Below are positions 12,250 to 26,358 of a stretch of DNA of 64,000 nt, one piece after another. The notes below the pieces were generated by a model. That model was not told where the DNA came from. It saw only the letters and a list, made by a program, of their open reading frames with translations, and made no database searches. Source of the stretch: Elusimicrobiota bacterium (GTDB taxonomy: Bacteria > Elusimicrobiota > UBA8919); the NCBI GenBank assembly GCA_028718185.1, contig JAQUMH010000001.1:31186-95185 (forward strand). The letters are read 5' to 3'. How positions within the stretch are numbered: the first letter of the stretch is position 1; each line of letters begins with the position of its first letter. A program made the translations under genes and the position numbers.

Positions 12250-12828
12250 TTATTCGTTGTTACAAATACAAGCATTTCGCCTGAAAATTCGTTTTTCCGT
12301 AATTACAAAATCCATCGGAACATCTTTTTCTGAAACCGGTATCCTTTTCAAAACCTGAAAACTGTGCGACAAACCAATCTTTACCGTAGAAATATTTTTT
12401 AAAAACTTGTCAAAATATCCTTTACCAAAACCAATTCGATTACATTGTTTGTCAAATACTACACCCGGAACAATCACTGCATCTAAATTAAAGTTGTTTT
12501 TAAGATTATTACCTTTAGTTTCCGGTTCTAAAATCCCATATTTACCTGAAACTAAATTTTTTAAATCTTTAATTTTAACAAGCATTAACTTATTTTTCAC
12601 AATTTTGGGTAAAAAAACGTCCTTCTTTAATTTTAATGAACTTTCTATCATCTTACGAGTATCAACCTCGTTTTTAAAAGATACGTAAAACGATACTCTT
12701 CTGGCATCGCAAAACTCCCTTAGCTTAAAAAGTTTTTTTAATATCTTTTCACTATTTACATCTACTTCCTTTTTATTAATTTCTTCTCTTATTGCTAATA
12801 TTTTTTTCCTGATATCCTGTTTATTCAT
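12250..12828 (-). CDS. 5-formyltetrahydrofolate cyclo-ligase
   Basis: 192 aa; DAVIVPGVVFDKQCNRIGFGKGYFDKFL motif typical of MTHFS/YgfA family. Confidence 0.85.
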   Translation of the reverse strand: MNKQDIRKKILAIREEINKKEVDVNSEKILKKLFKLREFCDARRVSFYVSFKNEVDTRKMIESSLKLKKDVFLPKIVKNKLMLVKIKDLKNLVSGKYGILEPETKGNNLKNNFNLDAVIVPGVVFDKQCNRIGFGKGYFDKFLKNISTVKIGLSHSFQVLKRIPVSEKDVPMDFVITEKRIFRRNACICNNE

Positions 12829-13923
12829 TTACTTATTTTTAAGTTCTTCCGGAACATCAACAATTCTTTCTTTTTCTATCTTTTCAATTTTTTCAAATAT
12901 TTTAGAATATGCTTCTCTGGATTTTTTTGCTAAAGACAAATATATCGTTACCTGAGAAAGTGAAATCTTTGCTTCAGGCATACCGACAAAATCAACTGCT
13001 TTAAGAACTGATGCTGCTAAAACTAATCCCATCGGGTCAGCATTACCAACATCTTCACTGGCAAAAATTACGAGCCGCCTTGCTATAAATCTAGGATCTT
13101 CACCGGCAACTAACATTTTTGCAAGCCAATAAAGAGCATCATCTGCTTTACCGGAACGCATAGATTTAATAAATGCAGAAATGGTATCATAATGACCATC
13201 TCCTTTTTTATCATAGACAACAACCTTTTTTTGAATGGATTCTACTGCAACATCTAAAGAAAATTCAACAAAACCTTCTTTATTTTTCTTTGTCGTTTCA
13301 AAACCTATCTCAACAGCATTCAAAAGCCGCCTGGCATCTCCTTCTGAATATTTTTTTAAATGATTTTTAGCTTCTACTGAAAATATAATTTTTAATTTTA
13401 ACCCGGTACTTTGTAGAATATTTTCTAAATTATCTTCTGAAAGCTTTTTAAATTCAAAAACCTGTGATCTTGACAAAAGTGCAGAGTTAATATAAAAATA
13501 TGGATTTTCAGTTGTGATTCCAATCAAAACGATTACTCCTTTTTCTACATAAGGCAGAAGACAATCTTGTTGCGACTTGTTAAAATGATGTATTTCGTCA
13601 ATAAGCAAAATAGTTTTTTTATCTCTATTTTTCGCTGTATTAATTGTTTTTCTTAAATCATCTACACCGCTTATAACAGCGCTTATTTCCTGAAAATATC
13701 CCGATGTCATATTAGCGATAATCTTTGCTAAAGATGATTTTCCGCTACCGGAAGGACCGTAAAATATAACAGATGAAAGTTTATCCGATACAATTGCCCT
13801 TCTTAATAGCTTGCCTTCCGATAAAATATCTTCTTGTCCCACAAAATCATCAAGTGTCTTGGGACTCATTCTCGATGCTAATGGTTCTTTTCTTTTGATA
13901 TTTTCTTTTTCAAACAAGTCCAT
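12829..13923 (-). CDS. rarA: Replication-associated recombination protein A (AAA+ ATPase RarA/MgsA)
   Basis: Walker A GPSGSGKSS, LLIDEIHHFNKSQQD, GDARRLLN, and conserved C-terminal MgsA domain (ALYWLAKMLVAGEDPRFIARRL). Confidence 0.85.
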   Translation of the reverse strand: MDLFEKENIKRKEPLASRMSPKTLDDFVGQEDILSEGKLLRRAIVSDKLSSVIFYGPSGSGKSSLAKIIANMTSGYFQEISAVISGVDDLRKTINTAKNRDKKTILLIDEIHHFNKSQQDCLLPYVEKGVIVLIGITTENPYFYINSALLSRSQVFEFKKLSEDNLENILQSTGLKLKIIFSVEAKNHLKKYSEGDARRLLNAVEIGFETTKKNKEGFVEFSLDVAVESIQKKVVVYDKKGDGHYDTISAFIKSMRSGKADDALYWLAKMLVAGEDPRFIARRLVIFASEDVGNADPMGLVLAASVLKAVDFVGMPEAKISLSQVTIYLSLAKKSREAYSKIFEKIEKIEKERIVDVPEELKNK

Positions 13924-13994: not shown

Positions 13995-14165
13995 TAATAG
14001 GATAAAAAAATCCCCGCGAATGCCGTGTGAACAAAATGTTTGAAGCACTACTTACTAAGTGGGTATCCTGTTCAAGTAACCAAAATTACAAGAAACGCAG
14101 ATTCCCAAAATTGTGCTTGTAAGCTCAAAACAGTCTATTCAACACCAACACCGCAGGGAAATTAT
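13995..14165 (-). ncRNA. ssrS: Candidate structured small RNA, possibly 6S RNA (SsrS)
   Basis: 247-bp non-coding gap immediately downstream of zapA; minus-strand 5' CCCUGCGG (about 14150) can pair with CGCGGGG (about 14015) followed by a U-run, enclosing about 140 nt; E. coli places ssrS between zapA and the 5-formyl-THF cyclo-ligase gene. Not verified by covariance model. Confidence 0.25.
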
Positions 14166-14169
14166 AATA

Positions 14170-14457
14170 TCACAAACGTAATGCTGACTCTAAATGCAAA
14201 ATCAACTCATCAACATTTCTATCTAATTCCGTTTCAATATTTTCTTTTTCTTCTTTCAACGCAAAAACTTCCTCCGCTAATGTAATAAGTGTAAGATTTA
14301 GTATCTTCAAAGTATCAGGTGTGTTCTGTTCTTTGCTTACTTCATTCAATTTTTCATTAACATATTTTGCAAGCTGGCTGACAAACAAGGGCTCCATTTC
14401 TGTTTCAATATCAAACTCACTATTCAATATTTTTATAGAAACCCTTTCTTTTGTCAT
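14170..14457 (-). CDS. zapA: Cell division protein ZapA
   Basis: 95 aa; N-terminal beta region (VSIKILNSEFDIETE) followed by coiled coil, ZapA-like. Confidence 0.7.
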   Translation of the reverse strand: MTKERVSIKILNSEFDIETEMEPLFVSQLAKYVNEKLNEVSKEQNTPDTLKILNLTLITLAEEVFALKEEKENIETELDRNVDELILHLESALRL

Positions 14458-14696
14458 TAGATTTTCGCCCTCTCAATGTTTTCTATAATACTTTTTATTC
14501 TACCTTTTATTATATCCCTTTCTTTAACATACTTTCGCACCATTTTATTTTCCTCCTCAAACATATTTACCTTTGAAAGTAATTCTTCATTCATGTCTCT
14601 AAGTTTCTGATTTTCTTTTTTCAAATCACTTATTCTAAACGAAATGCCTTTAACTTTTTCTTTTAACAAAGCAACTTTACTGCCAATCTTATCCAT
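14457..14696 (-). CDS. Small coiled-coil protein, possibly ZapB-like cell-division factor
   Basis: 79 aa, almost entirely heptad-like K/E/L/N-rich sequence; start overlaps zapA stop. Confidence 0.35.
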   Translation of the reverse strand: MDKIGSKVALLKEKVKGISFRISDLKKENQKLRDMNEELLSKVNMFEEENKMVRKYVKERDIIKGRIKSIIENIERAKI

Positions 14697-14788
14697 TACA
14701 CTAAAAAATTATACAAAAATATTTGATTTTGTCAACTCTCTTTTTGGTGATTATTTTTATAATAATTATTTGAACGAAATTGGCTATA

Positions 14789-17700
14789 CTATTTATCAGC
14801 CCAGTCTTTGGCGATTAAAATTGCTTGTTCCAATACTGTTTCGGTTGCTTTTTTCTGTTTATCAGGTGGATACCCATATTTTCTTAAAATTCTTTTTACC
14901 ATTACCCTCAAATTTGCCTGTATATTTTCTCTTATTGTCCAGTCAATAGTAACATTATTTCTCACTGTCTTTATCAGTTCCCTTGCAATTGTTCTCAAGA
15001 TTTCATCTCCAAGAACCTTAACTGCACTGTCATTTACTTCCAAAGCATCATAGAATGCAAGTTCATCTTCAGTTAAATTTAATAACTCACCCCGTTTATC
15101 AGCATCCCTCAACTTCTTTGCTAATTCAATGAGTTCTTCTATAACTCTTGCTGTTTCTATTGCCTTATTCTGATATTTCCGAATCGTCTTTTCCAGCATT
15201 TCCGCAAATGACCTGCCCTGTATTAGATTTCTTTTTGTCCTTATTTTTATTTCGTCATTCAGCAATTTTTTCAAAAGTTCAAACGCTAAATTTTTGTGCG
15301 GCATATTTTTTACTTCCGCCAAAAACTCATCCGAAAGAATTGAAATATCCGGTTTTTTAATCCCAGCTGCTTCAAATACATCAATCACTTTATCAGAAGT
15401 AATTGCTTTTGATATTATCTGTTTTATTGCCGTATCAAGTTCTTCTTCTGTTTTACCACCACCCACTTCAAACTTCGCAATTCTTGACCTTACCGCTTGA
15501 AAAAAACCTACATTGTCTCTAATCTCAAGTGCCTTTTCATTCGGGACGGCAAGGGCAAACGCCTTTGATAACTGCGAGACATAATTCAAAAATCTTTCTT
15601 TTCCCTTCTCTTTTTCCTTGCCTAATATAAATTCGGCCGCTTCAGCCAATATGCCCATCTTTTCTCTTACACCAACAGTGAAAAACTTCTTATAATCAAA
15701 TTTACCTGCCTCGCCAACAGGCGGGACGAACATGCCACAAACGATTTCGTATTTTTCAAGCATAACTGCAACTGCTTCTCTCTGGTCAAAAGTGGGCTTC
15801 CCTTCTCCGCCACTTTCTGTATAGATTGAAAGTGCTTCTTTCAAATCGGCTGCAATGCCTAAATAGTCAACCACGAGTCCACCGGGCTTATCTTTGAAAA
15901 CCCTGTTCACTCTTGCTATCGCCTGCATAAGACCGTGCCCGCGCATCGGCTTGTCAATATACATCGTATGCAAACAAGGAACATCAAATCCCGTAAGCCA
16001 CATATCTCTCACAATTGATAGCTTAAGCGGGTCGCTGTCATCTTTCATTCTGTTGCCTATTTCTCTGCGTCTCTGTTTATTTCTTATATGTTCCTGCCAA
16101 CCAACATCATCACTTGCAGAGCCGGTCATTATTATTTTAAGAAAACCTTTGTCATCGTCTTTGTGATACCAATCGGGACGGAGTTTTATAATCTCATTAT
16201 GCAGTTCAATACAAATACGCCTACTCATACAGACAATCATTCCTTTGCCATCAAGCACTTTTAGACGCTCTTCAAAATGTTCTACAATATCTTTTGCAAT
16301 CTGTTTAATCCTTTTTTCACTGCCAATGATTGCCTCAAGCCGAGCCCATCTTGTTTTTAACTTCTCTTTTTTCTTTACTTCTTCGAATTCGGTCACTTCT
16401 TCGAATTCAGGGTCAATTTTAGGTCGCTCTTCTGCTTTTAACTCAAGTTTAGCAAGACGGTTTTCATAAAATATTCTGACTGTGGCACCATCTTTAACTG
16501 CCTGCTCAATATCATAAACATCAATGTAATCGCCAAAAACTGCAATCGTATTCCTGTCAGTTTTTTCTATAGGCGTTCCGGTAAATCCTATAAATGAAGC
16601 ATTCGGCAATGCATCCCGCATATGCTTTGCGAAACCATCTATAAAATCATACTGACTTCTGTGTGCCTCATCTGCAATAACTACTATGTTTCGTCTTTCA
16701 GACAACAATTGGAAACGGTTTGCATTTTCTTCAGGGAAAAATTTTTGTATTGTTGTAAATACAACACCACCGGATGCAACTTTTAAATATTCTTTAAGTT
16801 CATCTCGTGTTTCTGCCTGTACCGGCTCTTGCCTTAAAAGTTCCTGACACCTGCAAAAAGTACCATACAATTGGTCATCTAAATCGTTTCTATCTGTAAG
16901 AACGACAATAGTCGGATTATCCATCCTAAGAACAAGTTTGCCGGTATAATATGCCATTATTAAACTTTTCCCTGAACCCTGAGTATGCCACACAACACCG
17001 CACCGTTTGTCGCCTTTCTTACTTGATGCTTTAATCGTTGATTCAACCGCCTTATTTACCGCATAATATTGGTGATATGCTGCTATCTTTTTGGAAGTTT
17101 TAATTTGCTCATTTTCAAAAACAATAAAATGTCTAATTAAATCAAGAAGAACTTTTTTATTCAGCATCCCTTTCAATAGCACTTCTATCTGCGGAACAGT
17201 TGCCGGTTCTTTTTCTGTGCCATCAATTGTTTTCCAAGGCAAAAACCTCTCCCAATCAGAAGTTATTGTCCCTGCTCTTGCTTCATTGCCATCACTTATT
17301 ATAAGGATTTCGTTGTAATTGAAAACGGAAGGTATTTGTGTTTTGTAGGTTTCAAATTGCTTGAATGCCGATTTTATAGTAGCGTTTTCATCAGCAGGAT
17401 TTTTTAATTCAATGACAACTAACGGCAAACCATTCACAAAAATAACAATATCGGGACGCCTGTTGTTATTATTTTCTATAACTGTAAATTGATTTACTGC
17501 TAAAAACTCATTATTGTTGATATTCTTAAAATCAAAAAGCCATACTTTATCACCAACAATTTTTCCCACCTTTTTATATTCAACATCAACACCGTTAACC
17601 AAGAGTTTATGGAAATTATGATTATTTACAATCAGGTTAGGGGTTTTGTCTCTCAATACTTTTTTAAGGACTTCTTCTTGGGCAGTTTTTGGAACCTGTG

Positions 17701-17890
17701 GATTTAACCTGTCAATTGCTTCCATTAACCGCTCAATCAAAACAGAATTGAAATAATCATCTCTTTCAGGTCTCGTGCCATCAACAGCAATATCCGGACC
17801 ATAAAGTGTCTTATATCCCAATTCTTTTAATATGTCCAATGATAACTGTTCAATTTCCGATTCGGTGATTATGTGTGGCATATTTTTCAA
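14789..17890 (-). CDS. hsdR: Type I restriction enzyme R subunit (HsdR)
   Basis: 1033 aa; N-terminal nuclease region, SF2 helicase motifs (TQGSGKS, DEAH-like [10 protein letters not shown]). Confidence 0.95.
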
Positions 17891-17893
17891 TGT

Positions 17894-18658
17894 TTATGAA
17901 ACTAATTCTTGCCTTATTGCTTCTCTCTCACTCCAAATTACTGGATTAACTCCATAATTAAACAGTGCTTCAATAACCGAAGGCATAGTTTTTTGTTCTG
18001 AATCATTTAAGAAAGCATAAGCTTTAGAATTAGTAGGTCTAACTTCCTTGGTATCAATCCAAGAAAAAGCAAGAGCTTGTGCAGTATCTTTATTGGGTCT
18101 ATTTATTGTTTGAATAATTCTTTCCGGTTGCCTTTTTGATGCAGGAATTACAAAGTCAAATAAATGGTCATAACCGCTTTTCCCAGTAAATTTAATCCTC
18201 GGAGTATATCTAATATCATTTATATTCATCCAAGAAGTAACATCTTCAAAAAACAAACTGGCAACCATAGGTGCAGCTAAATAAAATAAATCATTTATTG
18301 CTAACATAGCCTGTACCAAATTATGCTTTTTTAATGAAAAGTTTTCAGATGAAGCATGCAAAGTTAAAGATTTTTCTTGCATTTTAACGCCAAAACCGTT
18401 TAATGTTAATAGAAGAAGATCCTTGCGTTTTTTACTATCTAATTCACAGCCCGATTGCATAAGATCAGCAATGGTATAGCCATCATCTGTTAAAATATAA
18501 CCATTATTATCCCGCTTAACATATATTTGTAAATAATCATTGTGTCTATCCAAATAAGGAGTCGTTATTTCGACCCAATCTTCTACTTGACGTAAAGCTG
18601 TTTTATCTTTCAACCAATTTAAGTAATTATCCAAAAGCTTTTGTATTTCGTCTATCAT
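17894..18658 (-). CDS. Uncharacterised protein embedded in type I R-M operon (from memory resembles DUF1828/DUF1829-type proteins)
   Basis: 254-aa ORF; ATG overlaps stop of upstream 151-aa ORF (ATGA), and it ends 4 nt before hsdR start; no catalytic motif recognised. Confidence 0.5.
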
Positions 18659-19110
18659 GAAAATAACCCCCTCTCTATGTTCGGTGGTTCTATTATATTA
18701 CATAATATCATAAAATCGCTCAAGGTTTGCCATAAATCAGAAATATTTGGGAATCTGTCAATTGGCAAAGGTACTGCCCACTTATCACCAAATCCTTCAC
18801 GATAATAATGTAAATGTGGTGATGCTATTTCTTGCCCATCAGGATTCCTATGAGGCTGTCCACCAAAATCTAATCTAACAAGTATTACTACTTGTTGTGC
18901 ACGATTTTGATATGAACCTTTTAGTAAGTCAATTCTACCTCTGCTAATATCAAGCATAAAGTTCTCACGTTTGTTTACAGAAGTTATAGGAACGCGTATT
19001 TGTCCACCATATCCAGGGTATTCCCAACTTACATCATTGACTTTTACTTTTTCCATTGCTATCAAAGTATTCGCTTCGGTTTGAGGTAAATTAATTTCAG
19101 GCATTTGCAC
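18655..19110 (-). CDS. Uncharacterised protein embedded in type I R-M operon
   Basis: 151-aa ORF overlapping hsdS 3' end by 14 nt and coupled to the following 254-aa ORF; contains PHLHYYREG and HRNPDG segments of unknown significance. Confidence 0.5.
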
Positions 19111-20290
19111 TCCTTTTTATTCTTATCTTTCCTGACATTAGTTTTGGTAAAAGAGAATCACAAATATCGTTTAATTTTTTATTTTCTCGCAAATTCTCTA
19201 ATATTTGCTGCATGATAGGCTCAATTACCTTATGAAACTTTTTCATTATGAAATCATTTGGAACAACAATACTTATTCGCGCAAAATTTCCTGTATTAAG
19301 ATTCAATGTAGCTGTTCCCCCAAGTCCCATAGTTTTTATTTCTTCACTTTTGTTCAACATAGAAAAATACATAAAATATGGACTAATTTCTTTTTTACAA
19401 ATAATGCTATTTATTTGTTGATTTGTCTGACTAACTTCACTTGTAAGTGATACTAAACCTGGAGTAGCTATACAACTGACACAGACAGATAACGCAGATA
19501 AATATTTATTTTTTTGTAAATCAGCCCCTTGTTTTGAAAGTATTTTTTCTGTTTTAATTACAAAAACAAAATTACGCATATCAGGAATAGTAATGAACGG
19601 TATATCTGCTCCATAATTATCTCTATTTATAGTTGCAGGAGTTTTTCCGCAAATAATATCACCACAGTCTTTTATTTCTTTTTTCCCCCATCCATCAGGT
19701 AAACCATTTTTAAATTTTGTTTTTTCATAGTCGGGGAAACGGAAAGCAATAAACCACTCCTTGAATATTGCCTGAGCTATTGACTCAAGGGTTTTATTCA
19801 TCTGGTTATTTAGTTCTATCTTTTCATCAAGGTCAGAAAGAATTTTTGCAATCGCCCGCTGTTCATTGAACGATGGTATATGTTTTTTTATTTCATACAC
19901 GTAATCACGATTAAGTCCGGGAACTGCTGAATGACTATTCATTTCAGTAAGATTTAATGTTTTAAGAAAATAATACCAAAACAATATGTCGTTTTCTCCT
20001 TTTGTTTTTACGTAATATGTTGTATCAATAGGCCAAAAATCAGTTTTTGAAAATGTAACTTGTCCAACAGTGCCTTTCCTGCCAATAATAATTCCAGGTC
20101 CTTTTACAAGTGCTTCATTATGCTGACCAATAATACCATTTGAACCATAGACCGATATATCACCACCTTTTCTCTCTCTTGTTATAAGCCCATCACCATA
20201 AACTAACTCAATATTATTTCCAACAGATGATTCTTCCCATCCTTCGGGAATTGCACCAATTTCTGTTTGTTTGAATTTATTCTTTTCCAT
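19097..20290 (-). CDS. hsdS: Type I restriction-modification specificity subunit (HsdS)
   Basis: Two target-recognition domains separated by conserved spacer; ORF track begins at 20347 but likely start is the internal Met (MEKNKF...) at 20290, just after the HNH gene stop. Confidence 0.85.
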   Translation of the reverse strand: MEKNKFKQTEIGAIPEGWEESSVGNNIELVYGDGLITRERKGGDISVYGSNGIIGQHNEALVKGPGIIIGRKGTVGQVTFSKTDFWPIDTTYYVKTKGENDILFWYYFLKTLNLTEMNSHSAVPGLNRDYVYEIKKHIPSFNEQRAIAKILSDLDEKIELNNQMNKTLESIAQAIFKEWFIAFRFPDYEKTKFKNGLPDGWGKKEIKDCGDIICGKTPATINRDNYGADIPFITIPDMRNFVFVIKTEKILSKQGADLQKNKYLSALSVCVSCIATPGLVSLTSEVSQTNQQINSIICKKEISPYFMYFSMLNKSEEIKTMGLGGTATLNLNTGNFARISIVVPNDFIMKKFHKVIEPIMQQILENLRENKKLNDICDSLLPKLMSGKIRIKRSANA

Positions 20291-20297
20291 ATTGTAT

Positions 20298-20990
20298 TTA
20301 ATTAGTTGCGATTGTCTTACATTTTTTACAAAAACATCCCGGGTCATGAAAACCTATCTGCATAATAAGTTTGTCCCAGAACAGCATACCCCAGAAGTGA
20401 AATTTATTTAACTCGGGAATAATAATATATTTATAATCAAATACTGCTGGATACTGCCCTTTTGATGAGATATTACGTATATACTCAAACTCCAAATCAG
20501 GTCTTTGTCCTTCTGAGTAAATCTTGTTAATACGCGGTGTTCTATCAGGAAGAAACTGTCCGCATTCTTTAAAAAATAACCCTCTTGTAATTTTCCAAAC
20601 CACTCTCCAAACACGCTCGCCATTGAATCGTTTTAGTACTTTATTATATGGTAAAATAAGCCCTGACGGCCTTGTTTCAAATTCTTTAAAAACCATTTTG
20701 TGAAGACGACTACCTGCGGGACGCTTTCTTCTGCATACAATATCCTTCCAAATTTCGCTTCCTGTATCTGATTCCATTGTTAATGGAGCTATAGAATGAA
20801 CAAAATAGTCTTCATCTATCTGGTATGGTTCATGACATTTGCGATGAACCGGCAAAGTAAATAAATTTGGGGAATCTTTCTTCCTAACACGGGTCGCATA
20901 AAATTGTTTCGGAGGAACGTGGTCTTTATCTACTTTACCCGATAGCATATTACCGCACAAGTAACATATTTCTATTTCTTTTTTAGCCAT
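20298..20990 (-). CDS. HNH-motif endonuclease-like protein
   Basis: CYLCG...DKDHVPP...VHRKCH arrangement consistent with an HNH/zinc-finger nuclease core; C-terminal CFCKKCK; lies between yhcG-like gene and hsdS. Confidence 0.55.
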   Translation of the reverse strand: MAKKEIEICYLCGNMLSGKVDKDHVPPKQFYATRVRKKDSPNLFTLPVHRKCHEPYQIDEDYFVHSIAPLTMESDTGSEIWKDIVCRRKRPAGSRLHKMVFKEFETRPSGLILPYNKVLKRFNGERVWRVVWKITRGLFFKECGQFLPDRTPRINKIYSEGQRPDLEFEYIRNISSKGQYPAVFDYKYIIIPELNKFHFWGMLFWDKLIMQIGFHDPGCFCKKCKTIATN

Positions 20991-20992
20991 TG

Positions 20993-22132
20993 CTATTTTT
21001 TTATTTTGTTTGTGCTTTTACTCAACTCTTTCTCAATTTGTTTTATTGTTGGTAGATTCGATTTGAATTTCTTGGGTAAAGAATGTGTTAATTGATATTC
21101 AGAAACACCAATTGGCTTATGAATATCGCTTAAAGCATACTCAGCGACCACTTTATCTTTGGTTTTGCAGATAATTATTCCGACAGTCGGTTGGTCGAAT
21201 TCACTTCTCAACTGGCGGTCTACTGCAGTAATATAAAAATTCAATTTTCCGGCAAACTCCGGTTGAAATACCACAGTTTTTAGTTCTATCACGATATAAC
21301 AACGCAATTTAATATGATAAAAAAGCAGGTCTATGTAGAATTCACTTTCACCTACACGCAATGGAATTTGCCGTCCTACATAAGAAAAACCGGTTCCTAA
21401 TTCCAATAGAAACTTTGCAATATGCTCAATAAGAGCATTCTCCATGTCTTTTTCATTGTATTCTTCGGTTAACCTTAAAAAGTCAAAAATATAGGGGTCT
21501 TTGAGTGTTTGTTTGGCGAGGTCAGATTGGGGTTTAGGCAGTGTAAGAGAAAAGTTATTAACCGCCTTGCCTTCTCGTTTGAAAAGTCCCCATTCAATCT
21601 GGTGAACTAATACAGAGCGGCTCCAATTGTGCGTAATTGTTTTTTGAACATAATAAATTGCTTCTTTTATATTCTTACATTTTGTTATAATTGCGATGTT
21701 ATGACCCCAAGGTATCTGGGTGATTTGTGCAACGGCTTGTTGCACAAATTGTCCGACAGACTTTTGGATAATTCTGTTTATTGGCAATTGGGCAACAGCC
21801 TGTTGCCCAATTAAGCCAACAGGCTGTTGGCTTATCGCATTTCCCCGGCTATAAAACTGATACCATTGCTTGATATATTTAAGATTTCTAAGTGAGAATC
21901 CCTTCATATCCGAAAACTCTGCTGTTAAATCCTTGCTAAGCTGAATTAGAAAACCGCCACCCCATTTGGTGTTTGCCTGTTTAGCCACAATATCTGCACC
22001 AAGCTCCCAATAAAAGGAGAGCATTTCTGAATTAACTTTTACCGCTGCTTTAATCTGGGCGTTACGGACTTTTGCTTTTAAATCAGCAAGCCAAACTTTG
22101 TATTCCTTATCAAATACTAAATTAGATTTCAT
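20993..22132 (-). CDS. YhcG-like PD-(D/E)xK nuclease (DUF1016 family)
   Basis: QIPWGHN N-terminal motif and C-terminal [10 protein letters not shown]...IVIELK PD-(D/E)xK core; overlaps hsdM stop by 11 nt. Confidence 0.8.
21725..21835 (-). repeat. Three in-frame near-perfect palindromes inside the yhcG-like coding sequence
   Basis: TTGTGCAACGG/CTTGTTGCACAA (21725-21747), AATTGGGCAACAG-C-CTGTTGCCCAATT (21786-21812), AAGCCAACAG-G-CTGTTGGCTT (21814-21834); encode repeated QQAVAQ peptide. Confidence 0.6.
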
Positions 22133-23729
22133 ATCCCAGTCCTTTTAAATTTTTCTTTATTTCTTTTTCAAGTTCTTCGGATTTTTCAAACTGTTCTGAA
22201 AGTTCTTTGGTAAGTCGTTTCATTTTTTCATTAAACTTTTCTTTATCTTCTTCCACTTCTTCGGTGCCTACATATCTACCGGGTGTCAAAATATAACCCT
22301 GTGATTTTATTTCTTCAAGTGTTGCCGATTTGCAATAACCTTTTTCATCTTTATACTTGCCCGCCGACGTCCCAGTGGCGGGTTTACCTTCTCCCCGCCA
22401 TGCATGATATGTATCAGCAATTCTATTTATCTCTTCTTCAGTTAATTCCCTGTGCCTGCGGTCTATCATTACGCCCATTTTCCGAGCATCAATGAAAAGA
22501 ACTTTGCCCCTTCTGTCTTTGAATTTGTGATTTTTCTTATCGCGAGCAATAAACCAAAGACAGGCGGGTATCATTACATTGTAGAAAAGTTGTGATGGCA
22601 AAGAAACCATACAATCCACTATGTCTGACTCAAGCATATTTTTTCTTATTTCACCTTCATTTGACTGGTTAGAAGACATAGAACCGTTTGCTAATACAAA
22701 GCCTGCAATACCTTTTGGCGATAGATGATAAACAAAATGCTGAACCCATGCGAAGTTGGCATTACCTGTCGGAGGGACACCGTATTTCCATCTCACATCA
22801 TCTCTTAATTGCTCGCCCTTCCAATCACTGTCATTAAATGGTGGATTGGCTAATATAAAATCTGCTTTTAAATCTTTATGTTCATCTTTTAAGAAACTGC
22901 CTTCATTATTCCACATTATATTTGCATCTATACCACGGATTGCTAAGTTCATTTTACAGAGACGCCATGTGGTTTGATTGGATTCCTGTCCATTGATAGC
23001 AATATCACCTAATTTACCACCGTGTGCTTTTACAAATTTTTCGCTTTGAACGAACATACCACCGGAACCACAACACGGGTCAAAAATACGACCTTTATAT
23101 GGCTCCATCATTTCCACAAGTAATTGCACTATGCTCCGCGGAGTATAAAATTGCCCGCCTCGTTTACCTTCCGAATCTGCAAACTGCCCTAAGAAATACT
23201 CATAAACTCTACCCAAAATATCTTTACTGCGATTTTCGTAATCTCCTAAACTAATTGTACCTATAAGGTCTATTAGTTCACCAAGACGCTGTTTATCAAG
23301 TTTAGGGTCTGCATAATTTTTAGGAAGAACACCCTTAAGGGTTGGATTTTCCTTTTCTATAACATACATTGCGTCATCTATGATTTTACCTATTGTGGGT
23401 TGTTTTGCATTTTTCTGTAGGCGTGACCAGCGGGCTTTTTCCGGGACATAAAACACGTTTACGGCTTTATATTCGTCTCTGTCTTCAATTGTCTCATAAC
23501 GCACTTCGGGTTCTTTTATATATTGATTGCTTTTTGGATTAGAAACTTCTTTTACAAGTATTTGATAATGTTCTTCGAATGCGTCGGAGATATACTTAAG
23601 AAAAATCAATCCTAATACAATATGTTTATACTCAGCAGCATCCATATTGTTCCGCAGTTTATCAGCTGCTTTCCACAGTTTTTCCTCAAAACCAAGATTT
23701 CCACCATTTGAATTATCTTCTTTTTTCAT
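22122..23729 (-). CDS. hsdM: Type I restriction-modification DNA methyltransferase subunit (HsdM)
   Basis: 535 aa; N6-adenine MTase motifs including NPPFN and SAM-binding region. Confidence 0.95.
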
Positions 23730-23967
23730 AATTTATTTTTTATCACACGTATCTGTTTAATCACTCATTTTTTATCCTCTCCACTATAGTGAAAAGAAAA
23801 GGTGAGGGTAAGTGGATTTTATTCAATCTTATATGAAAATTATACCCAATTTTTAAGAAAAATCAAGAAACTGTATTGTGTAGGTATTGCAAAATAAAAT
23901 GTGCAGACAGATAAAGGGTTTGAACTATTTGGCAGGAGATTTTGTTTATTTTACTTGTTAAGTATTT

Positions 23968-26358
23968 TTACCTTAATTTTGTTTGGAATTTATTTTCAAG
24001 TTGTAAAACAATCTTTTTTACAACCACATCCACTTCTTCATCTTTTAATGTCCTGTCTGATAATCTAAATCTTATTCTAAAAGTAAGTGATTTATATCCT
24101 TCCTTAATTTGTTTTCCGGTATAAAAATCACATACGCTCACATCAACAGGAATATTAGACGCTTTTTCTTTTATAGCATTACATATTTCTACTGCAGGAT
24201 ACTGTTGAGATACTTCAATTGAAATATCCCTTTCTATAAACGGATATTTGGGAATATGTACGTATTTCCTCTCAAAACCGGCAGAACAAATAAGCTTATC
24301 TAAATCCAACTCAAAAACATATAAACAATCATTTTTAATATCTTGTTTTTTTATTACTTCAACATTGAGCAATCCAAAACTTCCGACATTATTGTTTTCT
24401 ATTAAAATATCTGCTGACTGATTTTGCTGAAACATTTCTTTGTCAGATTTTTTATACTCCCATGACTTAACCCCAATTTCCCTGAATAGTCTCTCAATAA
24501 AACCTTTTAAAAAATAAAAATCTACTGCAACAGCTTTTTCTTTCCACCAGTCATATTCCGAACCTAAAATACATCCTGAAAAAAATGTTTTTTCTTCCTC
24601 CCCAAAAACCTTTCCAATCTCAAATATTCTTATATCTTTATTACCTCTATTAATATTTCTTACCACAGTTTTTACCAGTCTTGGGATAAGCGATATTGAC
24701 AAAAACGGTTCTTCTAAAGATATAGGATTGGCAACTTTTCTTGCGCCTTCTGCCAACGTAAAAACAGCAAAGTCATCTTTAGATATAAAATTATAATTAA
24801 TCGTTTCATAAAATCCCACTGACACTGCAGTATTTCTTACTTTATCTATAACCTTTTCTGATTTATTTAAAACAATATCTGTTCTGAATGTTATTTTATC
24901 GCTTGTTTTTATTTTATCATAACCAAAAATACGAACGATTTCTTCTATTAAATCAAAATCTGTTTTGACATCGTTCCTGTGAGAAGGAACGGTTACAGAA
25001 AGTAAATAGGGGACAGGAAGCCCGCCACTAAACATTGGCGAGGCAGGCAAGAAGCAAGAAAAACCAAGGCGGGATAGAATATCCCTTATTGCATCAATTG
25101 AAATATCTATGCCTAATATTTTATTTACCCTGTCGGCATCAAGTTCTATTTTAATTAATTCTTTTTTATTTGAATATTTGTCAATCATACCGCCGGAAAT
25201 TTCGCCGCTGCAATTTTTTTTAATCATTTCCGATGCTATCATTCCTATATTTGAAATATTTTCCATATCGACCCCTCTTATAAATCTATAAGACGAATCT
25301 GTGGAAATTCCAAGTTTTTTTGAGGTTTTGCGTATAGAAATAGGATTAAAACATGCTACTTCTAAAAATACATTTTTAGTATTTTCAGAAACGGCTGTAG
25401 GCTCACCACCGATTACACCTGCAATAGCAATAGGGTCTTTTTCATCGGCAATCACAAGCATTTCTTCATCAAGACTATATTCCTTATTATCAAGTGCTAA
25501 AATCTTCTCATCCTTTTTAGCATTTCTGATAACAATTTTTCCCTTTATTTTTTCAATATCAAATGCATGCAGCGGTTGTCCATATTCAAATAGAATATAA
25601 TTTGTAATATCAACAACATTATTTATTGTTCTTAAACCACAACCTTCTATACGGTCAATAAGCCATTGCGGAGATTTTCCTACTTTTATATTTTTTATAA
25701 TAAATCCAACATATCGAGGACAATCTTTCGTATTTTCTACAACTACGGGAAAAATATTCTCTACTTTAATATCATAATCCCCTATCTCTTTCTTTAATTT
25801 TTTATTTAGTATTGCGGAAATCTCCCTTGCAATTCCAAAAACCGATAAACAATCACCCCTGTTTATTGTAACTTCAGTTTCAACATAAGAATCCTTATTC
25901 AGATATTCATTAATCGGGACACCAAGATTTACATCCGGAGGCAGAAGCAAAATCCCGGATGAATCATTACCAATTTTAAGTTCAGATTCTGAACAAAGCA
26001 TACCTTCTGATTCAACCCCGCGAAGCACAGCTTTTTTTATTTCACCTGCTGGCAACTTTGCCCCAATTTTTGCCAGCGGTACAATATCATCAACTTTCAT
26101 ATTTTTAGCACCGCAAACAATTTTGTAATTCTTCTGACCGTCGGTAACACTGCATATTGAAAGCTTATCTGCATTAGGATGTTTTTCTATTGATAAGATT
26201 TTTACAACAACAACATTTCTATCAATTGAAACACATTTAACAGGTTTAGTTTCAATCCCTGACATTGTAAGAAGGGAAGATAATTTTTCGGCATCAATAT
26301 CAACATCAATAAAATCCGACAGCCATTTTAATGAAATTATCATAATAGTATTATACAA
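23968..26358 (-). CDS. pheT: Phenylalanine--tRNA ligase beta subunit
   Basis: 796 aa; N-terminal tRNA-binding domain (LKWLSDFIDVD...), B3/4 and B5 regions. Confidence 0.95.
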   Translation of the reverse strand: MYNTIMIISLKWLSDFIDVDIDAEKLSSLLTMSGIETKPVKCVSIDRNVVVVKILSIEKHPNADKLSICSVTDGQKNYKIVCGAKNMKVDDIVPLAKIGAKLPAGEIKKAVLRGVESEGMLCSESELKIGNDSSGILLLPPDVNLGVPINEYLNKDSYVETEVTINRGDCLSVFGIAREISAILNKKLKKEIGDYDIKVENIFPVVVENTKDCPRYVGFIIKNIKVGKSPQWLIDRIEGCGLRTINNVVDITNYILFEYGQPLHAFDIEKIKGKIVIRNAKKDEKILALDNKEYSLDEEMLVIADEKDPIAIAGVIGGEPTAVSENTKNVFLEVACFNPISIRKTSKKLGISTDSSYRFIRGVDMENISNIGMIASEMIKKNCSGEISGGMIDKYSNKKELIKIELDADRVNKILGIDISIDAIRDILSRLGFSCFLPASPMFSGGLPVPYLLSVTVPSHRNDVKTDFDLIEEIVRIFGYDKIKTSDKITFRTDIVLNKSEKVIDKVRNTAVSVGFYETINYNFISKDDFAVFTLAEGARKVANPISLEEPFLSISLIPRLVKTVVRNINRGNKDIRIFEIGKVFGEEEKTFFSGCILGSEYDWWKEKAVAVDFYFLKGFIERLFREIGVKSWEYKKSDKEMFQQNQSADILIENNNVGSFGLLNVEVIKKQDIKNDCLYVFELDLDKLICSAGFERKYVHIPKYPFIERDISIEVSQQYPAVEICNAIKEKASNIPVDVSVCDFYTGKQIKEGYKSLTFRIRFRLSDRTLKDEEVDVVVKKIVLQLENKFQTKLR

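Follow-up and report, generated by a model that had tools for sequence, protein, structure and literature searches.

A type I restriction–modification operon with candidate anti-phage modules nested at its two junctions in an uncultured Elusimicrobia genome

Genes embedded in BREX, DISARM, type I restriction–modification (R-M), and Hma loci have been surveyed under the term "guilt-by-embedding" by Payne, Hughes, Fineran, and Jackson in 2024 (bioRxiv 10.1101/2024.01.29.577857), who nominated 145 candidate families and called them untested. In that study, embedded genes were co-oriented in 96.7%, PrrC-like systems were almost exclusively R-M embedded, and genomic-sink and selfish-linkage explanations were discussed. 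The PDC models derive from the genes found inside BREX, DISARM, and type I R-M loci, and PDC-M24 is listed among them as the two-family cassette FAM_00129>>FAM_00065 (10.1101/2024.01.29.577857). YhcG/DUF1016 (Pfam PF06250/PF17761) has been described as a predicted nuclease (PMC1189080), and DUF1016 has been noted inside type I R-M and adjoining a type II R-M gene (PMC9881135). The domain DUF1829 occurs in DS-6B of the validated HipAD anti-phage system (DefensePredictor, PMC13092281). In the present study, we analyzed a 64-kb stretch of an uncultured Elusimicrobia metagenome-assembled genome (MAG), hereafter the window, and focused on its minus-strand locus at positions 14789-23729, in which a type I R-M operon carries four passenger genes.

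The locus consists of seven minus-strand open reading frames (ORFs) in the order hsdM, YhcG/DUF1016, ORF230, hsdS, DUF6978 (ORF151), DUF1828/DUF1829 (ORF254), and hsdR. An earlier note on this DNA, here called the original prediction, had described these seven genes as a composite defence locus. The genes, their order, and their coordinates were borne out by ORF calls, Pfam, and NCBIfam, and the composite nature of the locus also held, as a locus of a kind already described (10.1101/2024.01.29.577857). Our reading, to which we assign a probability of about 0.72, is that an intact type I operon lies between pheT and zapB/zapA with three self-contained candidate anti-phage modules at its two junctions, and that the passengers are independent layers. 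The junction between hsdM and hsdS would have taken up the YhcG/DUF1016 nuclease (PDC-S02) and the HNH_5-like ORF230, and the junction between hsdS and hsdR would have taken up the obligate two-gene cassette of DUF6978 and DUF1828/DUF1829 (PDC-M24). The seven genes would probably be read from one promoter upstream of hsdM, in which case the passengers would be co-expressed and co-transferred with R-M. The type I enzyme would methylate host DNA and cut unmodified invading DNA, and the passengers would most likely act as independent nuclease-type defence layers rather than as subunits of the restriction enzyme.

The three core genes were identified by profile searches. The gene hsdM (22122-23729, minus strand) encodes a methyltransferase subunit of 535 amino acids (aa) that matched Pfam N6_Mtase (E=6e-112), HsdM_N, and PADLOC MTase_I (E=8e-223), with the catalytic motif NPPF at residue 295. 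It scored 196 bits against TIGR00497, below the cut-off of 242.75, which leaves its identity clear at the family level and short of the equivalog-level name. The gene hsdS (19097..20347, minus strand) encodes a specificity subunit with two target-recognition domains, which appeared as two stretches of Methylase_S and as a PADLOC Specificity_I match over residues 46-412 (E=8e-110). Its likely start is the ATG at 20290 (397 aa), and the homologues aligned from residue 20-23 on. The gene hsdR (14789-17890, minus strand; 1033 aa from a TTG start) encodes the restriction/translocase subunit with the domains HSDR_N, SWI2_SNF2, and T1RH-like_C. HsdR matched TIGR00348 with E=1.6e-199 and 664.7 bits against a cut-off of 284.55, and it retained the motifs D147...E161-L-K163, GSGKS at 305, and DEAH at 407. 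An alternative ATG start at 17881 (1030 aa) coincided with an independent gene call. On these annotations, the type I operon hsdM-hsdS-hsdR is complete and apparently functional.

The genes of the locus are intact and tightly packed. With the longest ORFs, the junctions in gene order measured -11, +2, -50, -14, -4, and +3 nucleotides (nt), where negative values are overlaps; the better-supported starts changed these to +7 nt for hsdS, counted from the ORF230 stop, -8 nt for ORF151, and +12 nt for hsdR. With the revised starts, neighbouring genes thus overlap or lie no more than 12 nt apart, so that the predicted tight coupling stood and the proposed limit of under 10 nt did not. Equally tight junctions made up 18 of the 52 elsewhere in the window (35%), and six in a row would be expected by chance in about 0.2%. 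The possibility of pseudogenes or mis-called ORFs, which had been named as a ground for refutation, was ruled out: the Pfam and NCBIfam domain matches ran end to end with catalytic motifs intact, same-length homologues were widespread, and the same gene order and identical gene calls were found in an independent short-read assembly of the same organism (L053). In addition, ORF230 was 100% identical to the MAG protein PHE88_00250. The locus spans 8941 nt and the three hsd genes add up to 5961 nt, so the passengers enlarge the core to 1.5 times its size and do not double it, as had been proposed.

The sequence scans were also consistent with a single transcription unit. Promoter-like sites numbered 45 against 39.8 ± 7 expected from shuffles and were not enriched; the four terminator-like sites (6.3 ± 2.6 expected) all lay within coding sequence, and no convincing internal terminator was found inside the locus. 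A promoter-like site, TTGATT-16-TATAAT, matching 10 of 12 consensus positions, was located at 23839..23866 on the minus strand, within the 238 nt that separate pheT from hsdM. This site is the candidate operon promoter from a consensus scan, in a region where promoter-like hits were at chance level overall. In the window, 61 non-overlapping ORFs reach 90 aa or more, every one of them on the minus strand, and co-orientation therefore carries no weight for the operon. A single transcript for all seven genes, as originally predicted, is plausible from the tight junctions and the lack of excess promoter- or terminator-like sites.

The first passenger, the YhcG/DUF1016 PD-(D/E)xK nuclease-family protein (ORF379; 20993-22132, minus strand; 379 aa), overlaps hsdM by 11 nt. 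Its domains DUF1016_N and YhcG_C were each matched end to end, and both exceeded the Pfam gathering score. The protein matched PADLOC PDC-S02 with E=2e-154 (residues 1-372 against profile positions 1-352 of 355), and its motif D268...E283-L-K285 was intact. The family was present in 489 plasmid records; among the sampled contexts, four of five were solo and one of five was within BREX-1. The latter lies on the Methylomonas koyamae plasmid pFW12EY (L087, 1338-10861), where a YhcG/PDDEXK gene and a Shedu nuclease gene are embedded between pglX and pglZ, a second stacked-embedding case involving the YhcG family. As a separate observation, the YhcG gene contains an imperfect inverted repeat of 22 nt, with a spacer of 11 nt, at 21784-21838, at the place where the linker in the DUF1016_N region has a repeated QQAVAQ peptide.

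The two genes between hsdS and hsdR had been described in the original prediction as two unknowns. Their position was confirmed, and they proved to be the catalogued pair PDC-M24A/B. ORF151 (18655-19110, minus strand) matched Pfam DUF6978 over positions 1-133 of 133 (E=5e-43) and PDC-M24A (E=2e-55); its likely start is the ATG at 19104 (149 aa), behind AAGGAG. The family alignment of DUF6978 contained the invariant motif ...LVRLD..G.PHRNPDG(6)PHLHxY..., which suggests a metal site. ORF254 (17894-18658, minus strand; 254 aa) overlaps ORF151 by 4 nt, carries the Pfam domains DUF1828 and DUF1829 end to end, and matched PDC-M24B with E=3e-108. The two genes are adjacent and co-oriented and match both hidden Markov models, which is the definition of PDC-M24.

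This pair was found to be unusually conserved and highly mobile. The M24B family included more than 120 clusters at 72-80% identity (P0270-P0389), nearly all 254 aa long, from hosts spanning Elusimicrobiota, Desulfobacteraceae, Nitrospiraceae, Zixiibacteriota, and others. Such identity across phyla indicates very recent and frequent horizontal spread of a rigid two-gene unit. DUF6978 lay immediately upstream of DUF1828/DUF1829, generally with the same 4-nt overlap, on plasmids, in a prophage, and in most IMG/VR matches. Examples were the IncP plasmid pRSB223 (53/57% identity), the Acetobacter plasmid pAOF1 (50/50% identity), and the Lactobacillus prophage Lj965, where the pair was located between a repressor module and superinfection-exclusion and integrase genes. 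Just upstream of the DUF1828/DUF1829 homologue of Staphylococcus phage 37, beside the integrase gene, lies a small ORF weakly similar to DUF6978. Similarly, the Streptococcus satellite phage Javan357 (L084, 2676-3759) encodes a DUF1828/DUF1829 homologue beside an integrase, with an upstream unannotated DUF6978-like frame (tblastn E=2.7e-8), and this satellite may carry the pair as cargo.

In chromosomal contexts, the pair occurred mostly outside R-M. Six distinct MAG or metagenome contexts were recovered. One of them (L057, an R-M/Abi island) had the pair inside or beside R-M, and in another (L063) the pair lay close to a type I system without being part of it; it was solo beside housekeeping genes in the MAG contigs L058-L062 and L064. 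The type I locus of L063 (15160-20765), about 5 kb from the solo pair, has its own insertions, with DUF4411 and helix-turn-helix/Peptidase_M78 proteins between hsdS and hsdR. A further locus, L070, belongs to an unrelated type I family and contained the pair between its putative hsdS and its hsdR. The hsdM and hsdR of this locus were only 24-27% identical to those of the window, which indicates that the pair was captured independently at the same junction.

We then considered what the pair might do. The model of ORF254 had a predicted local distance difference test (pLDDT) score of 68. In this model, the N-terminal domain tentatively resembles secretion chaperones/DUF2170, and the C-terminal domain tentatively adopts a restriction-endonuclease-like fold; the structural matches of the C-terminal half were proteins of the restriction-endonuclease fold and included PspGI (9.3), NgoMIV (8.9), Can2, NucS, and Cfr10I. 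Residues D168 and E179 were largely conserved, and the most conserved residues formed an acidic cluster in DUF1828. Our best guess is that M24 is a two-component module of the nuclease type, toxin-antitoxin-like or acting by abortive infection. No credible relatives of solved structure were found by sequence, with single sequences and profiles, for ORF230, ORF151, ORF254, or YhcG.

The remaining passenger, ORF230 (20298-20990, minus strand; 230 aa), is located between YhcG and hsdS and belongs to an uncatalogued family. No match was found in Pfam, NCBIfam, PADLOC v2.0.0, or PHROGs; in Pfam, the window protein had none even at E≤10 and is not assigned to the HNH clan. Its N-terminus contains an HNH_5-like zinc-knuckle/His-Me motif (C9, C12, D23-H24, H49, C52, and H53), and its C-terminal part consists of an alpha/beta domain followed by an H215/C219/C221/C224 cluster, which is common to the closer relatives. 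Among 114 diverse representatives of the family, C9, C12, D59, E60, and Y62 were invariant, and H24, H49, C52, and N53 were conserved in at least 90%, the window protein having H53 at the last position. Sub-threshold HNH_5 matches were obtained for 8 of 31 relatives (best E=0.005) and for 35 of 114 (best E=1.2e-4). The AlphaFold2 model (pLDDT 90) had no close fold in the PDB and displayed beta-beta-alpha secondary structure over the CxxC...DH...HxxC(N/H) segment. From the motif, an HNH-type nuclease is a reasonable hypothesis for ORF230. The proposal that two nuclease folds lie between hsdM and hsdS thus held for the PD-(D/E)xK motif of YhcG; for ORF230, the motif is conserved, yet no Pfam threshold was reached.

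The ORF230 family is large and mostly found outside R-M. The indexed search returned 145 homologues and the exhaustive search 2879 representative clusters at E≤1e-3, almost wholly from metagenomes or MAGs; no homologues were found in the plasmid search, and viral contigs contributed two loci. Of 49 genome loci, 48 were outside R-M and had no conserved neighbour. Sporadic neighbours were the genes of AbiU, GajA (Gabija), AriA (PARIS), Old, integrases, Xre-like antitoxins, Fic, and TIR proteins. The one embedded case, in Candidatus (Ca.) Hydromicrobium americanum (L007), had the order hsdM-ORF230-hsdS-hsdR, with ORF230 53%, hsdM 68%, and hsdR 63% identical to the window's. Two closer relatives were also found in R-M contexts: one at 70% identity in the order hsdM-ORF230-hsdS, with an hsdM 71% identical (L065), and one at 84-86% identity in the order ORF230-hsdS-SLFN/AlbA_2 (L050). 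A metagenome scan for close relatives gave three short contigs only and added nothing. Neither YhcG nor M24 was present in the orthologous R-M loci L007 and L065. This points to hsdM-ORF230-hsdS-hsdR as the earlier gene order in the R-M lineage, joined later by YhcG and M24 in the ancestor of the window's locus.

These observations lead to a broader proposal, which we put forward only tentatively. ORF230 might represent an unrecognised widespread family (about 2,900 clusters at 50% identity) of HNH_5-like nucleases that carry a new C-terminal domain and defend against phages as a single gene. Within one lineage, a type I system with the order hsdM-ORF230-hsdS-hsdR, conserved at 53-70% identity between Elusimicrobia and Ca. 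Hydromicrobium, might have adopted it as a stable fourth component, and there it would serve as an accessory or back-up nuclease with an activity linked to the restriction complex.

The original prediction had gone further and suggested that restriction is possibly coupled with a back-up abortive or nuclease layer. A PrrC-like arrangement would mean that the type I complex recruits at least one passenger or keeps it inactive, ORF230 being the most plausible candidate, and that this passenger fires as a back-up nuclease when a phage anti-restriction protein disables the enzyme. The precedent is PrrC in EcoprrI (summarised in Payne et al., 10.1101/2024.01.29.577857). In all of its closest relatives, ORF230 directly precedes hsdS, and the identities (53-70% for ORF230 and 68-71% for hsdM in L065 and L007, 63% for hsdR in L007) fit long co-inheritance as a unit. 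However, each passenger family occurs mostly outside R-M, that is, in 48 of the 49 ORF230 genome loci and in most YhcG and most M24 loci, so that none of these families is almost exclusively type I embedded in the way of PrrC. In the context surveys, the passenger families are autonomous cassettes, which argues against obligatory coupling. In the neighbour-joining tree of the ORF230 family, the smallest clade uniting the embedded members also holds a solo member (P0033/L051, beside Fic), and the case for a real functional tie between ORF230 and R-M is weakened accordingly. The distributions of YhcG and M24 fit self-contained cassettes that would repeatedly land in defence operons, unlike PrrC. 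Taken together, the comparative data speak for independent layers with a common promoter rather than for mechanistic coupling, with ORF230 as a possible exception, and we consider coupling of the PrrC type unlikely.

Four points weigh against independent anti-phage layers driven by one promoter. The families PDC-S02 and PDC-M24 are candidates, with an anti-phage role that is untested according to Payne et al. (10.1101/2024.01.29.577857). A canonical ExK motif was not evident in the DUF1829 domain of ORF254, for which the model reached only a pLDDT of 68. The consistent position of the closest ORF230 relatives beside hsdS hints that ORF230 may be more than a hitch-hiker, and weak internal promoters may be present within the operon.

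Selfish behaviour of the passengers was considered as a further explanation. M24 would then be an addiction or toxin-antitoxin-like element, ORF230 and YhcG would be free-standing homing-type nucleases, and R-M loci would simply tolerate such insertions as a genomic sink, the inserted genes being carried along in horizontal transfer, in line with the genomic-sink and selfish-linkage ideas raised by Payne et al. (10.1101/2024.01.29.577857). Each family is indeed patchily distributed without conserved neighbours, members occur on plasmids, in prophages beside integrases, and in satellites, and the 72-80% identity of M24B across phyla implies frequent recent transfer. However, the passengers are all intact, full length, and in operon register, and the window locus is without mobility genes or repeats. 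ORF230 is rare in viral contigs, and where M24 lies in prophages, between repressor and integrase genes and, in Lj965, next to a superinfection-exclusion gene, its position is typical of defence cargo that benefits the host. We regard selfish hitch-hiking as very doubtful. A role of the passengers as regulators or maintenance factors of R-M (restriction alleviation, control of hsdR expression, or establishment in a new host) is scarcely credible, since only their position inside the operon speaks for it and co-orientation is the rule among embedded genes (96.7%, 10.1101/2024.01.29.577857), whereas no DNA-binding regulator domain or controller-protein match was found in the passengers with Pfam, NCBIfam, or PADLOC, nuclease-type motifs and folds were seen instead, and the orthologous R-M loci L007 and L065 do without YhcG and M24.

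The surroundings of the locus were consistent with an island between housekeeping genes. Upstream lies pheT (23968..26358, minus strand), which encodes the phenylalanyl-tRNA synthetase beta chain with the Pfam domains B3_4, tRNA_synthFbeta, FDX-ACB, and B5. Downstream lie a ZapB-like coiled-coil gene (14457-14696, minus strand), zapA (14170-14457, minus strand), 6S RNA, and genes for an MgsA-like ATPase, 5-formyltetrahydrofolate cyclo-ligase, and RNase Y. By this annotation, pheT and zapB/zapA are the housekeeping boundaries of the island. A perfect sigma-70 consensus promoter, TTGACA-16-TATAAT, was found at 14708-14735 on the minus strand, directly in front of the ZapB-like gene and 53 nt beyond the end of hsdR, which argues that the downstream housekeeping genes keep a promoter of their own even with the R-M island inserted. 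Near the locus, neither flanking repeats (direct or inverted) nor a tRNA gene or an integrase was found.

Base composition deviated only mildly. The G+C content was 0.357 for the locus and 0.337 for the rest of the window, the comparison proposed in the earlier note, and the G+C content at third codon positions (GC3) ranged from 0.21 to 0.33 for the genes of the locus against a background of 0.252 ± 0.03. A mild GC3 mosaic was visible, with hsdM, YhcG, ORF230, and hsdR higher and hsdS and the two M24 genes lower. A foreign origin by composition was not retained, the locus being only slightly atypical in both measures. GC skew was negative in every 1-kb bin of the 64-kb window, alongside the extreme co-orientation of its genes.

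Several features were recorded further downstream. The 6S RNA gene ssrS (14007-14162, minus strand; Rfam RF00013, 64 bits) lies directly downstream of zapA, and beyond it the 5-formyltetrahydrofolate cyclo-ligase gene is located at 12250-12828. The order of zapA, 6S RNA, and cyclo-ligase resembles what we take to be the zapA-ssrS-ygfA order of E. coli, here with the MgsA-like gene interposed. The MgsA-like AAA+ ATPase ORF (12829-13923, minus strand) abuts the cyclo-ligase gene with a 0-nt gap. Of the 167 positions of the MgsA_C profile, it matches only 4-108, and the protein may be a shortened or truncated form of MgsA.

The locus offers a compact natural example of layered immunity, in which one promoter would drive a type I enzyme and up to four nuclease-like proteins. 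The conceptual gain is small, given that type I embedding is documented and three passengers are already catalogued candidates. Its value lies in the intact operon context that it provides for the candidates PDC-S02 and PDC-M24, in the demonstration that M24 is an unusually conserved and highly mobile two-gene unit, carried by plasmids and prophage lysogeny modules and also found solo in chromosomes, and in ORF230, an uncatalogued family that guilt-by-embedding would nominate. The apparent co-inheritance of ORF230 with hsdM and hsdR in one lineage makes it the most testable case here for a real coupling with R-M.

Collectively, the passengers can be set against described systems one by one. 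The YhcG protein of the window shares with the YhcG/DUF1016 family the full-length two-domain architecture, the D...ExK motif, and a place between type I core genes; it differs in that its gene precedes a second nuclease-like gene. ORF230 shares with the HNH_5 (Pfam PF14279) His-Me finger endonucleases the CxxC...DH...HxxC(N/H) motif, with the conserved D59-E60 just after it, and differs in having His rather than Cys as the third zinc ligand, in an extra helix between the two strands, and in the lack of a Pfam match. DS-6B of HipAD shares DUF1829 with the C-terminal domain of ORF254 (PMC13092281), but DS-6B pairs DUF1829 with DUF3037 and a HipA-like kinase, whereas ORF254 fuses it to DUF1828 and has DUF6978 as its partner, with no kinase. 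The likeness to PrrC in the EcoprrI hsdMSR operon lies in an extra effector gene inside a type I operon and in the concept of a back-up layer. PrrC is an ABC-ATPase/anticodon nuclease that is physically masked by the R-M enzyme and found almost only embedded; it is unrelated to any of the four passengers, whose families are mostly outside R-M. The locus as a whole resembles the embedded systems of Payne et al., with which it shares co-oriented genes nested between hsdM and hsdS and between hsdS and hsdR and, for three of its four passengers, matches to PDC models. The locus differs from those systems in stacking three separate modules at two junctions of one type I system, in adding ORF230, which is outside all PADLOC v2.0.0 models, and in its host, an uncultured Elusimicrobia MAG outside their RefSeq set.

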